A stretch of 40,708 bases of DNA from an uncultured Candidatus Saccharibacteria bacterium (GTDB lineage: Bacteria > Patescibacteriota > Minisyncoccia > Minisyncoccales > Staskawiczbacteraceae). The stretch spans positions 9,263-49,970 of the forward strand of contig CAYIDV010000001.1 in NCBI GenBank assembly GCA_964362315.1, in the 5' to 3' direction. Both the position numbers and the translations under genes were made by a program. Positions 874-16,052 of this stretch are shown piece by piece. Positions within the stretch are counted from its first letter, which is position 1. Each line of letters opens with the position of its first letter. A model generated the notes under the pieces. It saw nothing but the letters and a program-made list of their open reading frames with translations, ran no database searches and was not told the DNA's origin.

Positions 874-2868
874 ATGAATTTTAAATTAGTATCAAAGTTC
901 AGACCCAGGGGGGACCAGCCAAAAGCTATAAAAAAGCTTTATGAAAATTTAAAAGGGGGTGTAAAGCATCAGGTGCTTTTGGGTGTTACGGGCTCGGGCA
1001 AAACCTTCGCCATGGCCAAAGTTATTGAAAGGCTCCAAAAGCCGGCTTTGGTTATTTCTCCCAATAAAACACTGGCCGCCCAGCTTTATCAGGAGTTTAA
1101 AGAATTTTTCCCTCACAACGGCGTCCATTATTTTGTTTCTTATTATGACTATTACCAACCCGAGGCCTATATCCCCCAAACTGATACTTACATAGAAAAA
1201 GATGCCAAAATAAACGAGGAAATTGACCGCTTAAGGCATGCGGCAACCCAAGATGTGTTGACGAGAAAAGACGTTATTGTGGTCGCTTCGGTATCTTGCA
1301 TTTACAACATCGGCTCACCTGCAAATTATCAGAAAGTTGCCATGGATATAAAAGCGGGCCATAAAATAAAGCAGCGAGATTTTATGTTGCATCTAATTAG
1401 CATGCAATATAAAAGAAATGATATTGAATTTAAGCCGGGCACTTTCCGTGTGCGAGGAGACATTATTGAAATATACTTGGTAACCGGAGAAAAGTTGTTA
1501 AGAGTAGAATTTTCTGGCGACAAAATAAATAAAATTTTTCTGTCACCGGCCGGCGTTAGTTCTAAATTCCTAATTCTAAATTCCAAATTCAAATTATTTC
1601 CTGCCACATTCTGGGTTGCCCCCCAAAACAACTTACCCATTGCCATTGAAAATATAAAATTGGAACTGCAGGAACGGTTAAAATTTTTTAAAAAACAAAA
1701 TAAATTAGTTGAATACCAACGGTTGGAACAAAAAACAAACTATGACTTGGAAATGATTCAAGAAACCGGTTTTTGCCACGGCATTGAAAATTATTCCAGA
1801 CAATTGGAATTTAGAAAACCCGGTTCACCTCCTTTTTCTTTGGTTGATTACTTTAAATACGCAACGAAAAATGATTTTTTAATTTTTATTGACGAGTCGC
1901 ATATTTCACTTCCCCAAATAAGAGCGATGTCCATTGGCGACAGAATGAGGAAAGAAACGTTGATTGATTTTGGATTTCGCCTGCCTTCGGCACTGGACAA
2001 CCGACCACTTACATTTAAAGAATTTCAAGAGAGGCAACCATCAACTGTCTATGTTTCCGCCACGCCGGCTGATTACGAAAAAGAAAAATCTGGCAAATAT
2101 ATTATAGAGCAATTAGTAAGGCCCACTGGACTGTTAGAACCTTCAATAGAAATTAAAAAAACTGAAAACCAAATAAAAAACCTAATAGAAGAAATTAAAA
2201 AAGAAATCTTAATTGGTCAGAGAACCCTGGTGGTAACCCTAACCAAAAGACTGGCTGAGGAAATTTCAGACTACTTGGTTGAAAGGGGAATAAAAACCCA
2301 ATACCTGCATTCGGAAGTAAAAACATTGGAAAGGCCGGAAATTTTAAAAAATTTAAGGGAGGGAAAATATGACGTCTTGGTGGGAATAAATCTTTTGAGA
2401 GAGGGGTTGGATTTGCCCGAAGTAGCTTTAATCGCCATTTTGGATGCTGATAAAGAAGGTTTTTTAAGAAACCAAACTACTTTAATACAAACAATGGGCC
2501 GTGCCGCCAGGCATCCTGACGGCCGTGTAATTTTATACGCTGACAAAGTTACCCAATCAATCAAATCTGCTGTAGATGAAGTTAACAGGCGAAGAAAAAT
2601 ACAAAAGGCCTATAACAAAAAACATCACATAAAGCCCCAAGCGATTATTAAAGACATCCGCGACTGGGGTTTTTCCAAGAAAGAAGATATTGCTGAGGAG
2701 TTTGAGACCGTTCACGACCGCAAGCTGTTGGAGAGAGAAATGAAGCAGGCAGCCAAAAACCTGGATTTTGAACGCGCCACCCAATTAAGAGATTTAATTG
2801 CTAAAACAGACAAACGGCCAAGGGAGCCAGAATCCGAACCAGAATCAAGTTTAGAAGCCCAAAAATGA
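874..2868 (+). CDS. uvrB: Excinuclease ABC subunit B
   Basis: The 664-aa product has the Walker A motif GVTGSGKT, YYDYYQPEAY, a DESH box (IDESH), helicase motifs, and a C-terminal UVR domain (LEREMKQAAKNLDFERATQLRD). Confidence 0.97.
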   Translation: MNFKLVSKFRPRGDQPKAIKKLYENLKGGVKHQVLLGVTGSGKTFAMAKVIERLQKPALVISPNKTLAAQLYQEFKEFFPHNGVHYFVSYYDYYQPEAYIPQTDTYIEKDAKINEEIDRLRHAATQDVLTRKDVIVVASVSCIYNIGSPANYQKVAMDIKAGHKIKQRDFMLHLISMQYKRNDIEFKPGTFRVRGDIIEIYLVTGEKLLRVEFSGDKINKIFLSPAGVSSKFLILNSKFKLFPATFWVAPQNNLPIAIENIKLELQERLKFFKKQNKLVEYQRLEQKTNYDLEMIQETGFCHGIENYSRQLEFRKPGSPPFSLVDYFKYATKNDFLIFIDESHISLPQIRAMSIGDRMRKETLIDFGFRLPSALDNRPLTFKEFQERQPSTVYVSATPADYEKEKSGKYIIEQLVRPTGLLEPSIEIKKTENQIKNLIEEIKKEILIGQRTLVVTLTKRLAEEISDYLVERGIKTQYLHSEVKTLERPEILKNLREGKYDVLVGINLLREGLDLPEVALIAILDADKEGFLRNQTTLIQTMGRAARHPDGRVILYADKVTQSIKSAVDEVNRRRKIQKAYNKKHHIKPQAIIKDIRDWGFSKKEDIAEEFETVHDRKLLEREMKQAAKNLDFERATQLRDLIAKTDKRPREPESEPESSLEAQK

Positions 2869-2925
2869 GATGATTTCAAGGATTTTGCGACGAAATAAAA
2901 GTGAGGTCTGACCTCACTAAAAATC

Positions 2926-3066
2926 TCTAAGAAGGGAGATATAGCTGAGGAATTTTATTTAATTGGAGACCGAAAACTATTAGAGAAGGAAATGCGTGAT
3001 ACCGCCAAAAATCTGGACTTTGAAAGAGCGGCTCAGCTCCGCGATTTAATAGCCAAGTTAAAGTAA
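2926..3066 (+). pseudogene. Relic second copy of the uvrB 3' end (UVR domain), in the same frame as uvrB
   Basis: It translates to SKKGDIAEEFYLIGDRKLLEKEMRDTAKNLDFERAAQLRDLIAKLK*. This parallels uvrB residues SKKEDIAEEFETVHDRKLLEREMKQAAKNLDFERATQLRDLIAK. 2926-874 is a multiple of 3, and in-frame stops lie between the two copies. Confidence 0.75.
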
Positions 3067-3095
3067 ACAGCTAATATGGTCCATATTAGCTGTTT
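3067..3095. terminator. Bidirectional hairpin terminator between the uvrB relic and the 3108-4541 gene
   Basis: AAACAGCTAATATGG-T-CCATATTAGCTGTTT is a near-perfect palindrome, followed by ACTTTTCT. Confidence 0.6.
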
Positions 3096-3107
3096 ACTTT
3101 TCTAATG

Positions 3108-4541
3108 CTACGAATGCCATAATTCCTTCCATGCTTCTTTCCAAAATTCTTTTGTGGTAAACATGCGCTTTATATCTCTGCCAATATCTTCAAAATCTCT
3201 GATAATATCTTTAACTCGATTACTATATTTTCTTTGCCCATTTTCTTTGAATCTTCTTGCTGCCTCAGATCTAGATAAACTGGCCCTTTTATAGGCAAAA
3301 TTTCCTTCTTTATCTTCATACCTACGCAAACCCTTGGCAATCAGTTTTATTTCTTCTTCTTTCTTTCCCTCTAATTTTAGTTTAAAAGGTTTACCGTCCT
3401 CCCTTATGTATACATTTCCATCTTTTGGTAGCTCTTCACTTTTTTCTATCTTTTCCCACTCTTGATACTTTGTTTTGCTGATATTATAGTTATTTTTTCT
3501 CTCTTTCTCGCTTCCATCTTCATTATAAACTACAAGAGTAGCTGTCCACATACCCTCTTTATCTTTACTAATGTTCTCAAGAGTTACATACTGTTTCTCG
3601 CGGACCCCACCTTCTTTGATAAAACGGTAAACTCTTTCGCCTGCCAGTTGTTTTTTTAAACGCTCAAATTCCGCTTTATCTGGTTTTTCAGAAAGCTCAT
3701 TTAAACTTTCTGAAAGGTTCCTTCTTTCGGGGATCTTTAATCTTTTTTCTTTTGCTTCCGGCAGAACCATGCCCTCCGCCAGAATCCTGTATTGTTCTGC
3801 TAATTTTTCTTGTTCATCCCCCTTAATTTCTTTCTCTTTAGAGGGCGGGACCATCCCTTCAGCTAAAATTCTGTACTGTTCCCCCATCTCTTTCTGTTTC
3901 TCCGTTTGTTCTGTTTCTTCTTTTACTTTTTCCTCTCGTTCTTTTACTCTTTCAGCTACTTCTTTATCAGATATCTTACCGCCAAGCTCCCTTATCAATT
4001 CTTTTCGCGCCTCTACCTCTTCATATCCGGTTGTTTTTCCTTTTTTACTTTTATTAATATCGGTGAACTTCTTTTGCAGTTCCTTATCATCCATATCAGC
4101 ACTATGGGTTAAAAATCTTAGTCTTTTCCATCGTTCACTCAATATATCCAAAACAGCGTCGTACTCCTTTTTAAGATCCTCCATGGCAATATCAAAACTT
4201 TGGTCCCTTGATATTTTACTGCCAGATTTTTTTGCCTTTTTATAATGAGATTCGGCAATTTGGGCTAATTTTTTCTGTAAAAATTCTTCATCTTCAACCT
4301 CATTTCCTCCTCTATTTATCTTCTCTAAGGAACCCTGGGCATTCTCAATGTCTTCCCTTAAAATATCGTGTGTTTCCTCTATTTCCTTTAGCCAAGAACT
4401 TTTCTCCTCTTTGCCATTTTGTTCTGCCGAAAGTTTATCAATTTCAGGGAAATCAAAATCAAACTTTTCTCTTTCCCCTGTCGGCTGGGTTTGTTTTTCA
4501 GCCGATTGTTTGTTTGAATCAGGTTGCCGTTCTTGTTTCAT
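3108..4541 (-). CDS. Hypothetical Lys/Glu-rich protein with an internal 28-aa repeat
   Basis: This is a 477-aa ORF with no long competing ORF of better quality. It carries the repeat EQYRILAEGMV(P/L)P. I recognise no family. Confidence 0.6.
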   Translation of the reverse strand: MKQERQPDSNKQSAEKQTQPTGEREKFDFDFPEIDKLSAEQNGKEEKSSWLKEIEETHDILREDIENAQGSLEKINRGGNEVEDEEFLQKKLAQIAESHYKKAKKSGSKISRDQSFDIAMEDLKKEYDAVLDILSERWKRLRFLTHSADMDDKELQKKFTDINKSKKGKTTGYEEVEARKELIRELGGKISDKEVAERVKEREEKVKEETEQTEKQKEMGEQYRILAEGMVPPSKEKEIKGDEQEKLAEQYRILAEGMVLPEAKEKRLKIPERRNLSESLNELSEKPDKAEFERLKKQLAGERVYRFIKEGGVREKQYVTLENISKDKEGMWTATLVVYNEDGSEKERKNNYNISKTKYQEWEKIEKSEELPKDGNVYIREDGKPFKLKLEGKKEEEIKLIAKGLRRYEDKEGNFAYKRASLSRSEAARRFKENGQRKYSNRVKDIIRDFEDIGRDIKRMFTTKEFWKEAWKELWHS

Positions 4542-11702: not shown

Positions 11703-13022
11703 GTGACAGAAACAGCAGAAAAAGTACTAGGCAAAGTAACCATCAGCCAAGAAATTGTTAAAGACATTAAAAAAAATGTCAGCAACATTACTGGCTTTGA
11801 AAAAAAGATTAGAGACTATAGCAGGCAAGACACAACTGATTTTTTGAGCGCCATTTTATTTGGCGCCATTAACCTTGAGTCATCTGACGTTCACATTGAA
11901 CCCCAAGAAGACAGGGTAAGATTAAGAATAAGGATTGATGGCATCTTGCGCGACGTTATTTTTTTTGAAGAAAGCACTTATAACTCATTGCTTTCAAGGC
12001 TTAAGCTGCTATCTAATATTAAATTAAACATCTCAGAAAAGCCCCAGGACGGTAGGTTTACCATTGTTGTAGAAGATTTATTTATTGAAATAAGAACTTC
12101 CAGTTTGCCGTCTGAAAAAGGCGAATCCATTGTCATGAGGGTGTTAAACCCTAAAAATTTAATGGCCCTTGACACCCTGGGGTTAAGAAATGATGTGTAC
12201 GCCTTGTTAGAAAAAGAACTGGCAAAGCCCAATGGCATGATTGCGGTTGCCGGTCCCACTGGCTCTGGAAAAACCACCACCCTTTATGCTTTTTTAATGA
12301 AGATACAAAATCCGGGCATTAAAATTATTACCATTGAAGACCCGATTGAATATCATTTAACCGGAGTTTCCCAAACTCAGGTGGCTCCTGAAAAAGGATA
12401 CGACTTTTCAGAAGGACTGGCTTCTATTGTCCGCCAGGACCCAGATGTTATTTTAGTTGGTGAAATCAGGGATTCAAAAACCGCTAAAATAGCTCTGCAG
12501 GCGGCCTTAACTGGCCATTTAGTGCTTACCACCATTCATACCAACGATGCTGCAGGCACCATCCCCAGATTGGTTGATTTGGGGGCCAGTGTTTCATCCA
12601 TCGCTCCTGCTTTAAAAATGATTGTCGGCGAGAGGTTAATTAGAAAAGTATGCCAAGAGTGTTCAGTATTTGCCAAGCCCTCCCCAAAAGAACTTTTGGA
12701 GATAAAAAAAGGGTTAAAAAACGTTTCCAGCCAAACAAGCATCCCCAAAGACTTAGATAAAATAAAAATCGCCAGAGTAAAAGAAAAAATGTGCAAAACC
12801 TGCAGTTTTACCGGCTACAAAGGAAGAAAAGGGTTATTTGAAGTAATGATTGTTGACCCAAAAATGGAAAAATTTATTCTAACCAATCCGCCGGTGTCTG
12901 CCATAAAAAAAATGGCTGTCAAAAATGGGATGATTACCATGTACCAATCGGGTTTAATTGAAGTAGTATCGGGCCAAACCACCTTAGATGAGGTTAAAAG
13001 GGTAATTGAGGCAGATGAATAA
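11703..13022 (+). CDS. Type II/IV secretion / type IV pilus assembly ATPase (GspE/PilB family)
   Basis: It uses a GTG start and encodes 439 aa. Motifs are the Walker A GPTGSGKTTT, the Walker B region ILVGEIRD, the His box TGHLVLTTIHTN, and a tetracysteine motif (CQEC...CKTC). Confidence 0.9.
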   Translation: MTETAEKVLGKVTISQEIVKDIKKNVSNITGFEKKIRDYSRQDTTDFLSAILFGAINLESSDVHIEPQEDRVRLRIRIDGILRDVIFFEESTYNSLLSRLKLLSNIKLNISEKPQDGRFTIVVEDLFIEIRTSSLPSEKGESIVMRVLNPKNLMALDTLGLRNDVYALLEKELAKPNGMIAVAGPTGSGKTTTLYAFLMKIQNPGIKIITIEDPIEYHLTGVSQTQVAPEKGYDFSEGLASIVRQDPDVILVGEIRDSKTAKIALQAALTGHLVLTTIHTNDAAGTIPRLVDLGASVSSIAPALKMIVGERLIRKVCQECSVFAKPSPKELLEIKKGLKNVSSQTSIPKDLDKIKIARVKEKMCKTCSFTGYKGRKGLFEVMIVDPKMEKFILTNPPVSAIKKMAVKNGMITMYQSGLIEVVSGQTTLDEVKRVIEADE

Positions 13023-13047
13023 CCCCACAACAAAGTTTGATGTGGGG
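13023..13047 (+). terminator. Hairpin directly after the ATPase stop codon
   Basis: CCCCACA-ACAAAGTTTGA-TGTGGGG has no clear T-run, so terminator function is uncertain. Confidence 0.35.
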
Positions 13048-13053
13048 ATAAGC

Positions 13054-13188
13054 AAAACAACCCTGAAGTTGGAGGCGCATTATGTCTGGGACATAAGTAA
13101 AGATTTGTCTGAGGAATAATCGAGCCAAAGCAAGATTACCCGAAACTGAGATAAATCCATATAAAGCCTCCAACTTCAGGGTTGTTTT
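13054..13188. mobile_element. 135-bp MITE-like element or structured RNA with perfect 23-nt terminal inverted repeats
   Basis: AAAACAACCCTGAAGTTGGAGGC (13054-13076) is the exact reverse complement of 13166-13188. Internal hairpins are present and there is no ORF. Confidence 0.5.
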
Positions 13189-13312
13189 AACAAATTATAT
13201 TGCGAGGTCCGACCCCGCAATAATCTAAAATGGTGTTTTCCATCTAAATTAGCCATTTAGATGGAAAATGAATCCATATTTTAATTATAGCACCATATAG
13301 TTTATGTGTCAA

Positions 13313-13586
13313 CCCTTTCACCAATTTTACGATGATTAACAAAGCGAAGTGCGAGTTGTTCACCCCGCACCAATTTCGTAGATGAACTTAGTAATACTAC
13401 CAATTACAGGCGAAGCCGCTTCGCTCTTGAGAGTGGTACTTCTAAATACATAATACATAGCTGAAATTGGTGCAGGGGCAAGTAGCAACATTCCTTACAT
13501 GGGTAGAGCCACTTCGCCCAACAAGGGATGCACCTATTCGGTGCACGCACTGCGCTTGGTAATTTGGTGGTAAAATTGGTGATGGG
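13313..13586. ncRNA. Candidate structured non-coding RNA or motif array of unknown class
   Basis: There are three nested hand-checked helices: 13318-13330/13570-13582 (13 bp), 13342-13353/13546-13557 (11 of 12), and 13363-13377/13463-13478 (15 bp plus a bulge). There are also local hairpins. The region is visibly more GC-rich than its surroundings and has no ORF of 60 aa or more. Confidence 0.3.
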
Positions 13587-13610
13587 TCAAGCGTCTAGAG
13601 TCTTTAAGAA

Positions 13611-14621
13611 ATGAACACTATATTATCAAAAAAATCAGGTGAAAGAGATGAAATTTTAGATTCTTCTTTAAGGCCTAAAAATTGGTCAGATTATGTTGGT
13701 CAGGAAAAAATTAAGGAGAATATAAGAATAATTATTACCGCGGCAAAACAAAGAGGCCAATCCCCTGACCATTTATTGTTGTACGGAAACTCGGGACTGG
13801 GCAAAACTACACTGGCTCATTTAGTGGCTTTGGAAATGGGAAAGCAAATAAGAATAACCTCGGGACCGGCTATTGAAAGAGCTGGAGATTTGGCGGCAAT
13901 TTTAACTAATTTATCAGAAGGTGACATCTTATTCTTAGACGAAATACACAGAATCCACAAAACCGTTGAAGAATATATTTATCCGGCTATGGAAGAATAC
14001 AAATTAAATCTGATTTTGGGCAAGGGCCCGATGGCCAGGACCATGGAGCTAAAACTGCCCCATTTTACATTAGTTGGAGCCACTACCAGACCAGGGCTAT
14101 TGTCAGCTCCCCTAAGAAACCGTTTTGGCGCCACATTCGGACTTAATTTTTATAAAGCCCAAGATATTGAAAAAATCGTAGAAAGATCGGCTAATATTTT
14201 AAAAATACCAATTGATTTAGAAGCCATAAAAATAATAGCTCAAAGGTCTCGTTTTACTCCAAGAGTGGCTAATCGGCTTTTAAAAAGAATTCGCGACTTT
14301 GCCCAGGTAAAAAACATAGGTAAAATAAACAAAGAAATCGCTGAGCATGCCCTGCAATCTTTGGATGTTGATCAAATGGGGCTTGAGCCGGGCGATAGAA
14401 AAATTTTACTCACCCTTATAGAAAAATTTGGCGGCGGGCCAGTCGGCTTGCAGTCTTTAGCGGCGGCTGCCTTAGAAGAAGAAGATACTATTTTAGATAT
14501 CTATGAGCCCTATTTAATGCAATGCGGGTTTATTGAAAGGACTCCCAAGGGTAGAGTTGCCTCAAGGCTGGCTTACGAGCACTTGAGATTAAAGCAAGAC
14601 AGGCAACACAACTTAATTTAA
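13611..14621 (+). CDS. ruvB: Holliday junction DNA helicase RuvB
   Basis: The 336-aa product contains [13 protein letters not shown], the Walker [12 protein letters not shown], the Walker B LFLDEIHR, and a sensor region. Confidence 0.97.
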
Positions 14622-14715: not shown

Positions 14716-15009
14716 ATGATAAGGATTTGCGACAAATGCAAAGACGACAGGGGATTGGTATTGGTTCATAAAAACCGGAAGTCCGGTAAGTTAATTTGTC
14801 GTAACTGTTACCACATGGCTCGTTATCACGATACTTCTATTTACGAAAAGTGTGTTCGGTGTAGAAAATTCAAGTACGTACATGTAAGAACAGCTACTGG
14901 GAAACCGATTTGCCCAAGCTGCTACAAAAAACTACGGGAACTATTTTTACGCTTGACCCTCGTTGTGGTTGTTTTAAATGAAAATAGTTCCCAAAAACAA
15001 CTTGTCTAG
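14716..15009 (+). CDS. Small double zinc-ribbon protein
   Basis: AAGGAGG lies 7 nt upstream of the ATG. There are two C-x2-C ... C-x2-CY modules (CDKC...CRNCY and CVRC...CPSCY). The module resembles the repeats in the partial gene at 40431-40708. Confidence 0.6.
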   Translation: MIRICDKCKDDRGLVLVHKNRKSGKLICRNCYHMARYHDTSIYEKCVRCRKFKYVHVRTATGKPICPSCYKKLRELFLRLTLVVVVLNENSSQKQLV

Positions 15010-15092: not shown

Positions 15093-16052
15093 ATGAAAAA
15101 AAATTTATTTATACTTTTTGTCTTTTTATTTTTGCCGGCTTTTGTTTTAACCCAAGGAAATATTGAAATTAACACCGCCTCATTGGCTCAGTTAGATGAG
15201 TTGGTGGGAATTGGGCCGGTGCTGGCACAAAGAATAGTAGATGCCAGGCCATTTTCATCGGTTGACGACCTATTGAGAGTAAAAGGTATTGGGGAAAAAA
15301 CTTTACAAAAAATAAAAGACCAGGGTTTGGCTTATGTTTCAGGGGGAACAAAACCTCCAACTCAATTAGAAAATCAGGCCCAAAATACAAATCCTGATAA
15401 TAACCAGATTTCCAGTACTCAAAACCCAACACCCATAACTTATCCTGATGGTGTTTTTATAAATGAAGTTATGCCTGCTCCCGATGGACCCGACGAGCTT
15501 AACGAATGGTTTGAGTTACAAAATAGCAATAATTTTGATGTTGACTTATCTGGTTGGAAAATAAAAGATATTGAAGGAATAACAACAACCTACCTTTTGC
15601 CGCAAAACCAGAAAATATTAGCTGGCGCCTATTTAGTTTTAAAAAAACCAGATACAAGAATTACCCTCAATAACGACAAAGATGGGCTTAATTTAATTCA
15701 ACCCAGTGAAAAAATTGCTGATTCTGTATCTTTTCAAAAAGCTTTGAGGAATCAATCATATAATAAAACCGACGCGGGCTGGCAATGGAGTAGTACTCTA
15801 ACGCCTGGCGGTAAAAATAACATTGCCCAAGCTTTAGCAGAGGAAAAAACATTGCCAGAAACCCCAAAAACTGCTAACACAAGTAATAAAGTTTTAACGG
15901 CGGCGGTAACTAATCCCTCTAAAGTTCAGGAGGAAAAATTAAACCAAATAGATAATCAATTAGATCCTTTGATTATTTTTTGGGTGGCCTTAGGTCTCAC
16001 TTTGGTTTCGGGTGGAGTAATTTTGTTTTTAAGGTTTAAAAGAACACAGTGA
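15093..16052 (+). CDS. ComEA-like helix-hairpin-helix DNA-binding protein fused to a lamin-tail-like domain, with a C-terminal membrane anchor
   Basis: It has a signal peptide. The HhH pair is INTASLAQLDELVGIGPVLAQRIV...LLRVKGIGEKTLQKI. VFINEVMPAPDG...EWFELQN...LSGWKIKD is typical of an LTD. The C-terminal hydrophobic helix is followed by RFKR. Confidence 0.75.
   Translation: MKKNLFILFVFLFLPAFVLTQGNIEINTASLAQLDELVGIGPVLAQRIVDARPFSSVDDLLRVKGIGEKTLQKIKDQGLAYVSGGTKPPTQLENQAQNTNPDNNQISSTQNPTPITYPDGVFINEVMPAPDGPDELNEWFELQNSNNFDVDLSGWKIKDIEGITTTYLLPQNQKILAGAYLVLKKPDTRITLNNDKDGLNLIQPSEKIADSVSFQKALRNQSYNKTDAGWQWSSTLTPGGKNNIAQALAEEKTLPETPKTANTSNKVLTAAVTNPSKVQEEKLNQIDNQLDPLIIFWVALGLTLVSGGVILFLRFKRTQ

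Follow-up and report, generated by a model that had tools for sequence, protein, structure and literature searches.

Two nested MITE-like insertions as the probable origin of a foldback stretch upstream of ruvB in a Candidatus Staskawiczbacteria genome

Introduction

Intervening sequences (IVSs) of rRNA occupy helices 25 and 45 of 23S rRNA, their classical sites, in Salmonella, Campylobacter, Leptospira and other bacteria, and they are removed by RNase III without religation. Here we describe a stretch of DNA, positions 13313–13586 upstream of ruvB in a genome of Candidatus Staskawiczbacteria (Candidate Phyla Radiation, CPR/Patescibacteria), which probably represents two successive insertions of small foldback elements resembling both IVSs and miniature inverted-repeat transposable elements (MITEs). 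All positions refer to the window, which is the whole 40.7-kb stretch of DNA that was analyzed.

Several other systems of mobile or folded DNA are relevant for comparison. The attC sites of integrons and the hairpins of IS200/IS605 and repetitive extragenic palindromic (REP) elements are recognized as folded single strands, and IStrons consist of a group I intron fused to an insertion sequence (IS) element. Rickettsia palindromic elements (RPEs), reportedly described by Ogata et al. in 2000, are said to be hairpin repeats of ~100–150 bp that occur in reduced genomes and insert into genes, including RNA genes, which stay functional; we know of no reported target-site duplication or target consensus for them. 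The Correia elements of Neisseria have constant 26-bp terminal inverted repeats, a TA duplication and an IHF site, and belong to one genus. The ends of these elements (CREE/NEMIS) can create or preserve promoters, and hairpins in their transcripts are bound or cleaved by RNase III (PMC2649163). Tsurumaki et al. reported that rRNA genes of CPR bacteria hold many inserts at known IVS sites that are shorter than 200 bp, lack open reading frames (ORFs) and were termed "uncharacterized"; they were presumed to be IVSs processed by RNase III (PMC11270868). The literature that we searched on the motif described below, on MITEs in Patescibacteria and on a link between IVSs and MITEs contained no description of this repeat family.

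Two nested elements upstream of ruvB

A T2SSE-type ATPase gene (11703–13022) and ruvB are separated by 588 nt, and this spacer contains the stretch 13313–13586. The boundaries of the stretch coincide exactly with an outer element, which we designate type-O, and a second element is located in the hairpin loop of helix P3 of the first. Their parts are listed below.

13313–13586: composite foldback element; the outer type-O copy is formed by 13313–13358 and 13483–13586 and is split by the nested element
13363–13478: inner element of ~116 nt, with the arms CCCCGCACCAATTTC and GAAATTGGTGCAGGGG and a central hairpin GCGAAG-CCG-CTTCGC (13410–13424)
13309–13312: TCAA (TTGA on the minus strand), left copy of the target-site duplication, read from the sequence
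13587–13590: TCAA, right copy of the target-site duplication, read from the sequence
13313–13330: left terminal arm of the outer element, the 5′ strand of P1, which pairs with 13570–13586 (13/13 plus CCC/GGG tips)
13570–13586: right terminal arm of the outer element, the 3′ strand of P1, with outward start codons TTG 13576, GTG 13579 and ATG 13582
13344–13351: 5′ strand of P2, GCGAAGTG, with its partner CACTTCGC at 13510–13517
13529–13545: P4 hairpin TGCACC-TATTC-GGTGCA; 5/5 stem pairs covary in 38 copies, and the loop CTATTCG is nearly invariant

A profile of the 38 type-O copies in our structure alignment matches the window. After in silico removal of 13359–13482, the match is full-length (91 bits, E = 5.7e-30) and spans profile positions 6–151, the sole gap being the P3 loop that holds the inner element. 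A second profile, built from 14 CPR copies including members of a ~155-nt subfamily, matches 13363–13478 over its full length (55 bits, E = 2.2e-16). In each of the two elements, a structured interior is enclosed by terminal arms that are complementary to each other (about CCCC-NN-CACCAATTT...). Both fall within the size range of MITEs (<~500 bp), at ~150 nt for the outer and ~116 nt for the inner element, and both have terminal inverted repeats (13/13 plus CCC/GGG and 14/15, respectively). The type-O copy of the window has kept P1, P2 (with a compensatory C:G to T:A change relative to the family) and P4. Because P3 is interrupted and P5 is mismatched, it appears to be decaying. The copy in the window is an ordinary, partly decayed insertion, and the interest lies in the family.

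The initial annotation had described the stretch as a GC-rich, ORF-less and heavily paired region with six copies of a 9-mer motif. All six were recovered: exact copies of CACCAATTT are at 13319 and 13368 (forward) and at 13464 and 13573 (inverted), the last having been placed one position off, at 13572, and degenerate copies are at 13398 (TACCAATTAC) and 13559 (GTAATTTGGTGG). The four exact copies cluster within 263 nt, compared with a single one elsewhere in the window (16272). Copies with one mismatch are not enriched across the window (22 observed versus 22.6 expected), and the signal is therefore a local cluster of exact copies. The nested helices that had been proposed are present, 13318–13330/13570–13582 with 13/13 pairs and 13363–13377/13463–13477 with 14/15, as are a further helix, 13339–13353/13546–13560 (13/15), and the two local hairpins at 13410–13424 and 13529–13545. 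The forward and inverted motif copies are thus mainly the paired terminal arms of the two elements. The pairing of 13344 with 13510, suggested as an alternative, is in fact a conserved helix of the family.

The minimum free energy is −113.3 kcal/mol on the plus strand (z = −6.8) and −109 kcal/mol on the minus strand (z = −6.5), and 0/200 dinucleotide shuffles folded as well on either strand. The GC content is raised modestly (0.42–0.48 versus 0.33–0.40 in the flanks), but coding DNA at 12400–12700 is equally GC-rich. Long ORFs are indeed missing; two minus-strand ORFs of 43 and 48 aa, which qualify the description of the stretch as ORF-less, are chance ORFs, and there is no transposase ORF. 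The Rfam scan that had been suggested gave 0 matches in the window at the gathering threshold, a permissive scan of 12950–13700 gave nothing above 16 bits within 13313–13586, and ARAGORN found neither tRNA nor tmRNA in the region. The stretch is a non-random, structured, non-coding element outside the Rfam families, as had been proposed.

Insertion at the ruvB 5′ end

The features around the junction of the stretch and ruvB are as follows.

13611–14621, plus strand: ruvB, with the Pfam domains RuvB_N, AAA_lid_4 and RuvB_C
13284–13312, minus strand: sigma-70-type promoter (TTGACA, 17 nt, TGcTATAAT; 12/12 consensus match)
13304–13339, plus strand: stranded ancestral ruvB start (ATG 13304, GTG 13306), which opens an ORF of only 9–11 codons into the element
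13576–13614, plus strand: short ORF starting in the right arm, whose stop codon TGA (13612–13614) overlaps the ruvB ATG at 13611 (ATGA)

The RuvB protein of the window is 72–84% identical to those of about 55 Staskawiczbacteria metagenome-assembled genomes (MAGs). In ~50 Staskawiczbacteria loci, ruvB opens with ATGTCA(A), 11–12 nt past a conserved ATTATATCACC box, which is the −10 box of the divergent promoter read on the plus strand. The window retains this box and start at 13284–13312 (attatagcacc...ATGTGTCAA), and the stranded start is homologous to the ATGTCAA.. that encodes the MSS/MST.. N-termini of RuvB in the relatives. Because the ancestral start runs into the element and ruvB resumes at ATG 13611, the stretch 13313–13586 is an insertion into the 5′ end of ruvB. 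The empty site is a single ATGTCAAGC in L006 and other relatives. A profile search of the stretch against 80 ruvB loci gave nothing comparable, only a weak palindromic match in L044. This match was rejected as a conserved counterpart because it is a solo family member at another position. The earlier suggestion of a novel structured RNA specific to this locus does not hold: the stretch is missing before ruvB in ~50 relatives, and both of its parts are dispersed repeats.

Among the Staskawiczbacteria loci compared, only the window, L044 and L036 carry a palindromic insert at the ruvB site. The inserts of L044 and L036 are ~100 nt long, differ from that of the window and are at exactly the same position, and all three are flanked by TCAA:

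L044: ATGTCAA, then the insert GCCTTCACC..GGTGAAGGC, then TCAAGC
L036: ATGTCAA, then the insert GTCTTCACCC..GGGTGAAGAC, then TCAAGC

A neighbor-joining tree of RuvB places the window, L036 and L044 in separate clades, three in all, and their closest neighbors have no insert; the insert interiors differ as well. At least three independent hits on the site are therefore implied. The arrangement of arm ORF and ruvB in L044 is that of the window, and the arm ATG of L036 is in frame with ruvB, giving MGED-SSPLPEK.. where the relatives read MSSPPPEK.

The −35 and extended −10 boxes of the divergent promoter are kept before ruvB in about 50 relatives (at the corresponding place in L001–L056), the −35 box being the reverse complement of ATGTCAA. 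The promoter is still intact in the window because the left copy of the duplicated target supplies its TTGA. The repeated hits at ruvB are explained by the target, the conserved −35 hexamer, which is the reverse complement of the ruvB start.

The ruvB genes of the relatives seem to be leaderless and have a TATAAT-like box 4–7 nt ahead of the ATG. The RuvB N-termini of L046, L051 and L053 (MSTPSP.. or MSTPLP..) are encoded from ATGTCAACCCCTTCACC..., which looks like a solo left arm absorbed into the coding sequence.

A dispersed repeat family

Species-representative genomes were searched with the arm pattern CACCAATTT-N70-100-AAATTGGTGNNGGGG, which matches 102 stretches in CPR phyla, Planctomycetota/Phycisphaerae, Omnitrophota and Bdellovibrionales (Bdellovibrionota). 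One Planctomycetota MAG (JAHJUV01) has at least 12 loci, and the MAG of L044 (CAIXXY01) has 4–5. The C-run on the other side, which is outside the pattern, is present in nearly all genome matches. The phage vectors of IMG/VR gave 38 core-pattern matches; because the C and G runs are missing from all of them, these were set aside as chance background. The general-family elements are about 105–110 nt long, and their interiors are conserved only within lineages. L117 and L169 hold near-identical copies in unrelated flanks, and individual MAGs contain several copies of the ~155-nt CPR subfamily, which is found in intergenic regions unrelated to each other.

The source community was represented by Logan contigs of four groundwater metagenome runs. 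These contigs break inside the stretch, where 13324–13425 and 13494–13561 are at 3–13x the flanking depth and diverged copies are visible at loose contig ends. In one X3 contig, 13358 is connected to 13512 by 31 nt of normal type-O sequence; this contig thus represents an outer-type copy without the inner element. About 48 type-O elements, 149–157 nt in length, were recovered from metagenome contigs with an exact 21-mer (13526–13546) followed by a degenerate core pattern.

In GC-rich metagenome contigs (L186, L194–L196, L199, L202, L207, L217, L240, L244, L248, L250, L256 and L268), the pattern also matched unrelated intergenic palindromes, composed of the heptamer-like repeats GCGAATAGC and GCGAGTAGC, just past stop codons of high-GC bacteria. 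They resemble REP elements and are a family different from the type-O and arm repeats.

Target duplication and target preference

Element boundaries were set at the C and G runs, and the flanking 4-mers were compared. Identical 4-bp flanks were found for 24/96 general-family elements compared with 2/96 in the control, and for 11/47 type-O elements by the strict count compared with 1/47 (about 14 if the mis-set L184, L242 and L267 are included). The general-family enrichment is seen at 4 nt and not at 2, 3, 5 or 6 nt. The duplicated 4-mers include TTTA, CAAG, CTTG, TAAG, CCAG, TTGA and TTCA. The reconstructed type-O target is TTGAc in 8/11 cases, mostly TTGACA, and TTTAc is the target of the copies in Planctomycetes. 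The first base of the element is C, so that TTGAC is re-formed at either end. In L243 and L246, tandem copies have one TTGA in common.

Conserved fold of the type-O elements

The type-O fold consists of the following helices.

P1: the terminal arms, 16 bp
P2: GCGAAGCGC/GCGCTTCGC, 98.8% paired
P3: GTGGC-GAATA-GCCAC
P4: a 5-bp stem with the loop CTATTCG
P5: GCGCA/TGCGC, which in this model would possibly form a pseudoknot with P2

Across the named structure, 97.6% of the alignment cells are paired, and both partners have changed in 18/40 pairs. The alignment reaches a covariation score of 0.267, compared with 0.091 for shuffled alignments (0/500 reach the observed value) and at most 0.043 for slid partners, and RNAalifold agrees. 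Segments outside the search pattern (GGCGCAGCGCTTCGCC, CTATTCGG and CGCACTGCGC) are nearly invariant. P1 covaries across the family: the arm sequences differ (GCACC, GTTAC, GCCCC, GTCAC, GTTAG and others), and both arms stay complementary within each copy. The right half of type-O is an inverted homologue of the left half, as expected for fused transposon ends.

These observations bear on the other reading offered by the initial annotation, an iteron or centromere-like array. The motif corresponds to the end arms of hairpin elements lying one within the other, and its sequence varies across the family. A DNA site for one protein would show the opposite of arms that vary and stay complementary, and an iteron array can thus be dismissed.

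Copies in rRNA and pilin genes

Type-O elements are located inside large-subunit rRNA genes (L187, L200, L201 and L216) and small-subunit rRNA genes (L185 and L265) confirmed by Rfam, and they occur in both orientations relative to the host rRNA. Rfam searches of type-O copies in six other loci matched only the host rRNA, tRNA and group I introns. Judging from the flanks and from what is known of E. coli rRNA, we take the sites to be 23S helix 25 in five loci, all antisense, 23S helix 45 in two loci, both sense, and 16S helix 17 in three loci. The hairpin repeat family thus also forms the short uncharacterized inserts of CPR rRNA genes.

One locus, L265, has a family-armed insert at 2839–3128 on the minus strand, within a 16S rRNA gene (1064–3765), flanked by a CCAG direct repeat. 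The universal 16S sequence GTGCCAGCAGCCGCGGTAA is split by its exact family arms, CCCCCACACCAATTTT and AAAATaTGGTGTGGGGG, between which Rfam confirms a group I intron (65 bits). The boundaries are equally compatible with a canonical S516 intron (5′ exon ..UUCUGU, guide GCAGAA). A search for further intron-bearing members, with family arms about 260 nt apart, gave 0 matches in genome contigs.

Members of ~105 nt occur in type IV pilin-like genes of Planctomycetota/Phycisphaerae MAGs (L082, L089, L118, L127, L128, L136, L137, L138, L142, L150, L155, L162, L166, L175 and L179), and their position is exactly that of prepilin cleavage. A normal leader is still encoded upstream, ..K(A/G)G-F (MRDRKKG|F, MPSKIYSFKKG|F), up to the duplicated TTTA. 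Past the element the gene continues with TLIE..., and Pfam N_methyl matches residues 2–24. The arm, TTG GTG NGG GGG, supplies an in-frame start and a Gly at position −1 (M-R/W/K-G|FTLIE); the arm codon is more often R or K on the gene side. We considered these copies as a conserved 5′ leader of pilin genes and rejected this idea: the complete prepilin leader upstream, up to the duplicated TTTA, shows that they were inserted into the genes.

Comparison with described systems

The hairpin family resembles rRNA IVSs in its length (about 100–150 nt), its lack of ORFs, its complementary ends that extend an rRNA helix and its sporadic distribution, and type-O copies are at the presumed helix 25 and helix 45 regions of Rfam-confirmed 23S rRNA and at helix 17 of 16S rRNA. 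It differs from them in having 4-bp duplications, a TTGAC target and a conserved core, and in occurring also in intergenic regions, in −35 boxes of promoters and at gene 5′ ends; the copy in the window is in front of ruvB and not in an rRNA gene. Correia elements are likewise palindromic, MITE-like, ~100–150 bp long, bounded by terminal inverted repeats and often beside genes. In contrast to them, the hairpin family has arms that vary but remain self-complementary, duplicates 4 bp at TTGAC or TTTAC, spans several phyla and occurs also in rRNA genes.

As in RPEs, parts of the elements are translated (the MSTPSP.. arm in L046, L051 and L053, and MGED-RuvB in L036), but RPEs insert in frame within ORFs and have no sequence relationship to the hairpin family. 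Conservation of structure with variation of the stem sequence is shared with integron attC sites and with IS200/IS605 and REP hairpin ends. Those systems lack a 4-bp duplication, and their partners (IntI, TnpA-Y1 and RAYT) were not found here. The 16S insert of L265, which encloses a group I intron, is reminiscent of IStrons and implies that a mobile element could be spliced from the host RNA, whereas it is a single case, and the ORF-less members have no intron core.

For the window, the result is deflationary, as the striking fold would be selfish DNA rather than a new regulatory RNA. The family itself gives an identity to the short ORF-less inserts of CPR rRNA genes (PMC11270868), which are found also outside rRNA genes. 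It ties the classical rRNA IVSs, whose origin and mobility are a long-standing question, to a repeat that resembles a transposon, duplicates its target and has a defined target sequence. This target, TTGAC, is the sigma-70 −35 hexamer; since it is regenerated at both ends, promoters survive and the same site is hit repeatedly. The arms can donate start codons to interrupted genes, such as those for RuvB in L036 and the pilin-like proteins of Planctomycetes. In practical terms, they can be mistaken for structured RNAs when genomes are scanned, and assemblies break at them.

Proposed origin and alternative explanations

We propose, with a probability of roughly 0.8, that the stretch represents two successive small, non-autonomous foldback insertions of a MITE/IVS-like type, which are tolerated because they fold out of, or are cut from, the RNA. 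The data show that the elements belong to the family, that relatives lack them at this locus, that the target was duplicated, that a target sequence is preferred and that the fold is conserved. A type-O element of ~150 nt would have entered TTGA|CA and duplicated TTGA (TCAA on the plus strand), and a second element of ~116 nt would later have entered the hairpin loop of the first. The insertion presumably spared the divergent promoter and severed ruvB from its original start. Transcripts of ruvB from the old promoter would then begin with the folded element, and RuvB would be made from ATG 13611, probably via a structured leader of ~300 nt. The short ORF that starts in the arm (TTG 13576, GTG 13579 or ATG 13582) may couple translation to ruvB. 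By analogy with IVSs and Correia elements, the element may persist because its long terminal helix folds out of the host RNA or because RNase III removes it; the long P1 stems (about 15–20 bp) are plausible substrates of this enzyme.

Several observations weigh against this proposal. An intact target duplication is present in only about 25–30% of the copies, and the inner element has no clear one (TTCA on the left and CAAG on the right). A brute-force search of about 290 fetched loci for arm pairs 400–6000 nt apart returned only two neighboring elements in one 23S gene; no pair enclosed an ORF, as would be expected for an autonomous partner or a transposase with the same arms. A search for RNA-seq runs found none that contains this locus. 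Within the window, the type-O and inner-type profiles match only inside 13313–13586. Counts of wobble pairs versus A-C mismatches indicate no consistent RNA strand in type-O. Moreover, the family is more constrained than most MITEs, as seen in its near-invariant core, its covarying hairpins and the complementarity of the loops CGAAUAG and CUAUUCG, and this constraint hints at a function beyond passive junk.

Two further ideas we consider unlikely. The stretch may be a stand-alone small RNA gene, or the type-O core a functional RNA (a ribozyme or a guide for mobility or excision), consistent with the strong conservation of the core, the covariation of P1, P3 and P4, the possible P2/P5 pseudoknot, the complementary loops and the group I intron within the family-armed 16S insert. 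However, the elements are in both orientations in host rRNA and show no strand bias in the wobble counts, and selection at the level of a single RNA strand therefore lacks support. In addition, they have no promoter or terminator of their own, their halves are inverted homologues as for fused transposon ends, and the copy in the window is disrupted. The other idea, of similarly low probability, is that the core and arms direct removal at the RNA level, the family being an intron-like or self-processing mobile element whose host RNA is possibly religated; RNase III plus a ligase, or an activity of the element itself, may be the agents. Such removal would explain the tolerance in 16S and 23S rRNA, including the family-armed insert at the 530 loop. 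It would also explain the copies at prepilin cleavage codons of more than 10 Planctomycete pilin genes with intact leaders and the copies at the ruvB start in L036 and L044, where precise excision would restore the ancestral N-terminus.

A cis-regulatory 5′ leader that evolved to control ruvB (a riboswitch, a thermosensor or a protein-binding leader) would fit the strong fold, the location upstream of the present ruvB ATG and downstream of the ancestral promoter and start, the sequestration of the arm start codons in P1, the short ORF that ends on the ruvB ATG, and the hairpin inserts of L044 and L036 at the same place. This explanation is very improbable, being largely refuted by the distribution: the stretch is missing in about 50 relatives, the three inserts have unrelated interiors and an independent origin, the same elements occur in rRNA genes and unrelated intergenic regions and have no Rfam match, and the copy in the window looks decayed (P5 broken and P3 interrupted). 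Still less credible is an invertible promoter switch (inverton) controlling ruvB or a divergent small RNA. Inverted repeats do flank short segments, and a promoter-like TTGAGA, 16 nt, CATAAT (13427–13454) inside the stretch points to ruvB, but the inner-type alignment shows no conservation of this site, the inner segment measures just ~85 bp, and the neighbors include no recombinase gene. Furthermore, the family has target duplications and rRNA insertions, and no strand-switch joints were seen among the contigs of the four metagenome runs, although rare variants are lost from contigs. The four exact 9-mers, arranged symmetrically in 263 bp, would fit an array of symmetric binding sites for a protein on the DNA, such as iterons, a partition site or an operator array, and we assign this reading a nearly negligible probability. 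It is already contradicted by the compensatory changes of the arms and by the copies inside rRNA genes and ORFs, and the neighbors of the stretch (genes for the T2SSE ATPase, RuvB, a ComEA-like protein and YebC) include no replication or partition gene.

Other features of the spacer and its neighborhood

A hairpin RNA candidate of ~140 nt is located at 13054–13188 on the minus strand, between the T2SSE ATPase gene and ruvB. It is found at the same position in about 53 Staskawiczbacteria loci (nhmmer E = 1e-15 to 1e-28), with compensatory changes in 29/48 predicted pairs and with invariant G-U pairs if read on the minus strand but none on the plus strand. The conserved minus-strand promoter is upstream of it, and its 23-bp closing stem is followed by a U-run. 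No Rfam family matches it, the best being CncR1 with 22 bits compared with a gathering threshold of 76. A hammerhead ribozyme, signal recognition particle (SRP) RNA, 6S RNA and RNase P were considered by eye and dropped, as there were no core motifs or Rfam support. It is probably an undescribed, lineage-specific small RNA.

The spacer also holds perfect or near-perfect hairpins of 11, 14 and 13 bp at 13198–13222, 13236–13268 and 13020–13050, respectively, none of which occurs in compact relatives, whose small-RNA candidate is directly next to the promoter. Where the spacer is long, as in the relatives L005, L006, L041 and L055, it carries other, unrelated palindromic inserts. Together, these extra hairpins and inserts mark the spacer as a hotspot for small palindromes. 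Two genes after ruvB, past a 97-aa ORF (14716–15009), the region 15093–16052 encodes the ComEA-like protein (helix-hairpin-helix and lamin-tail), which with the upstream T2SSE ATPase gene suggests a DNA-uptake and pilus neighborhood.

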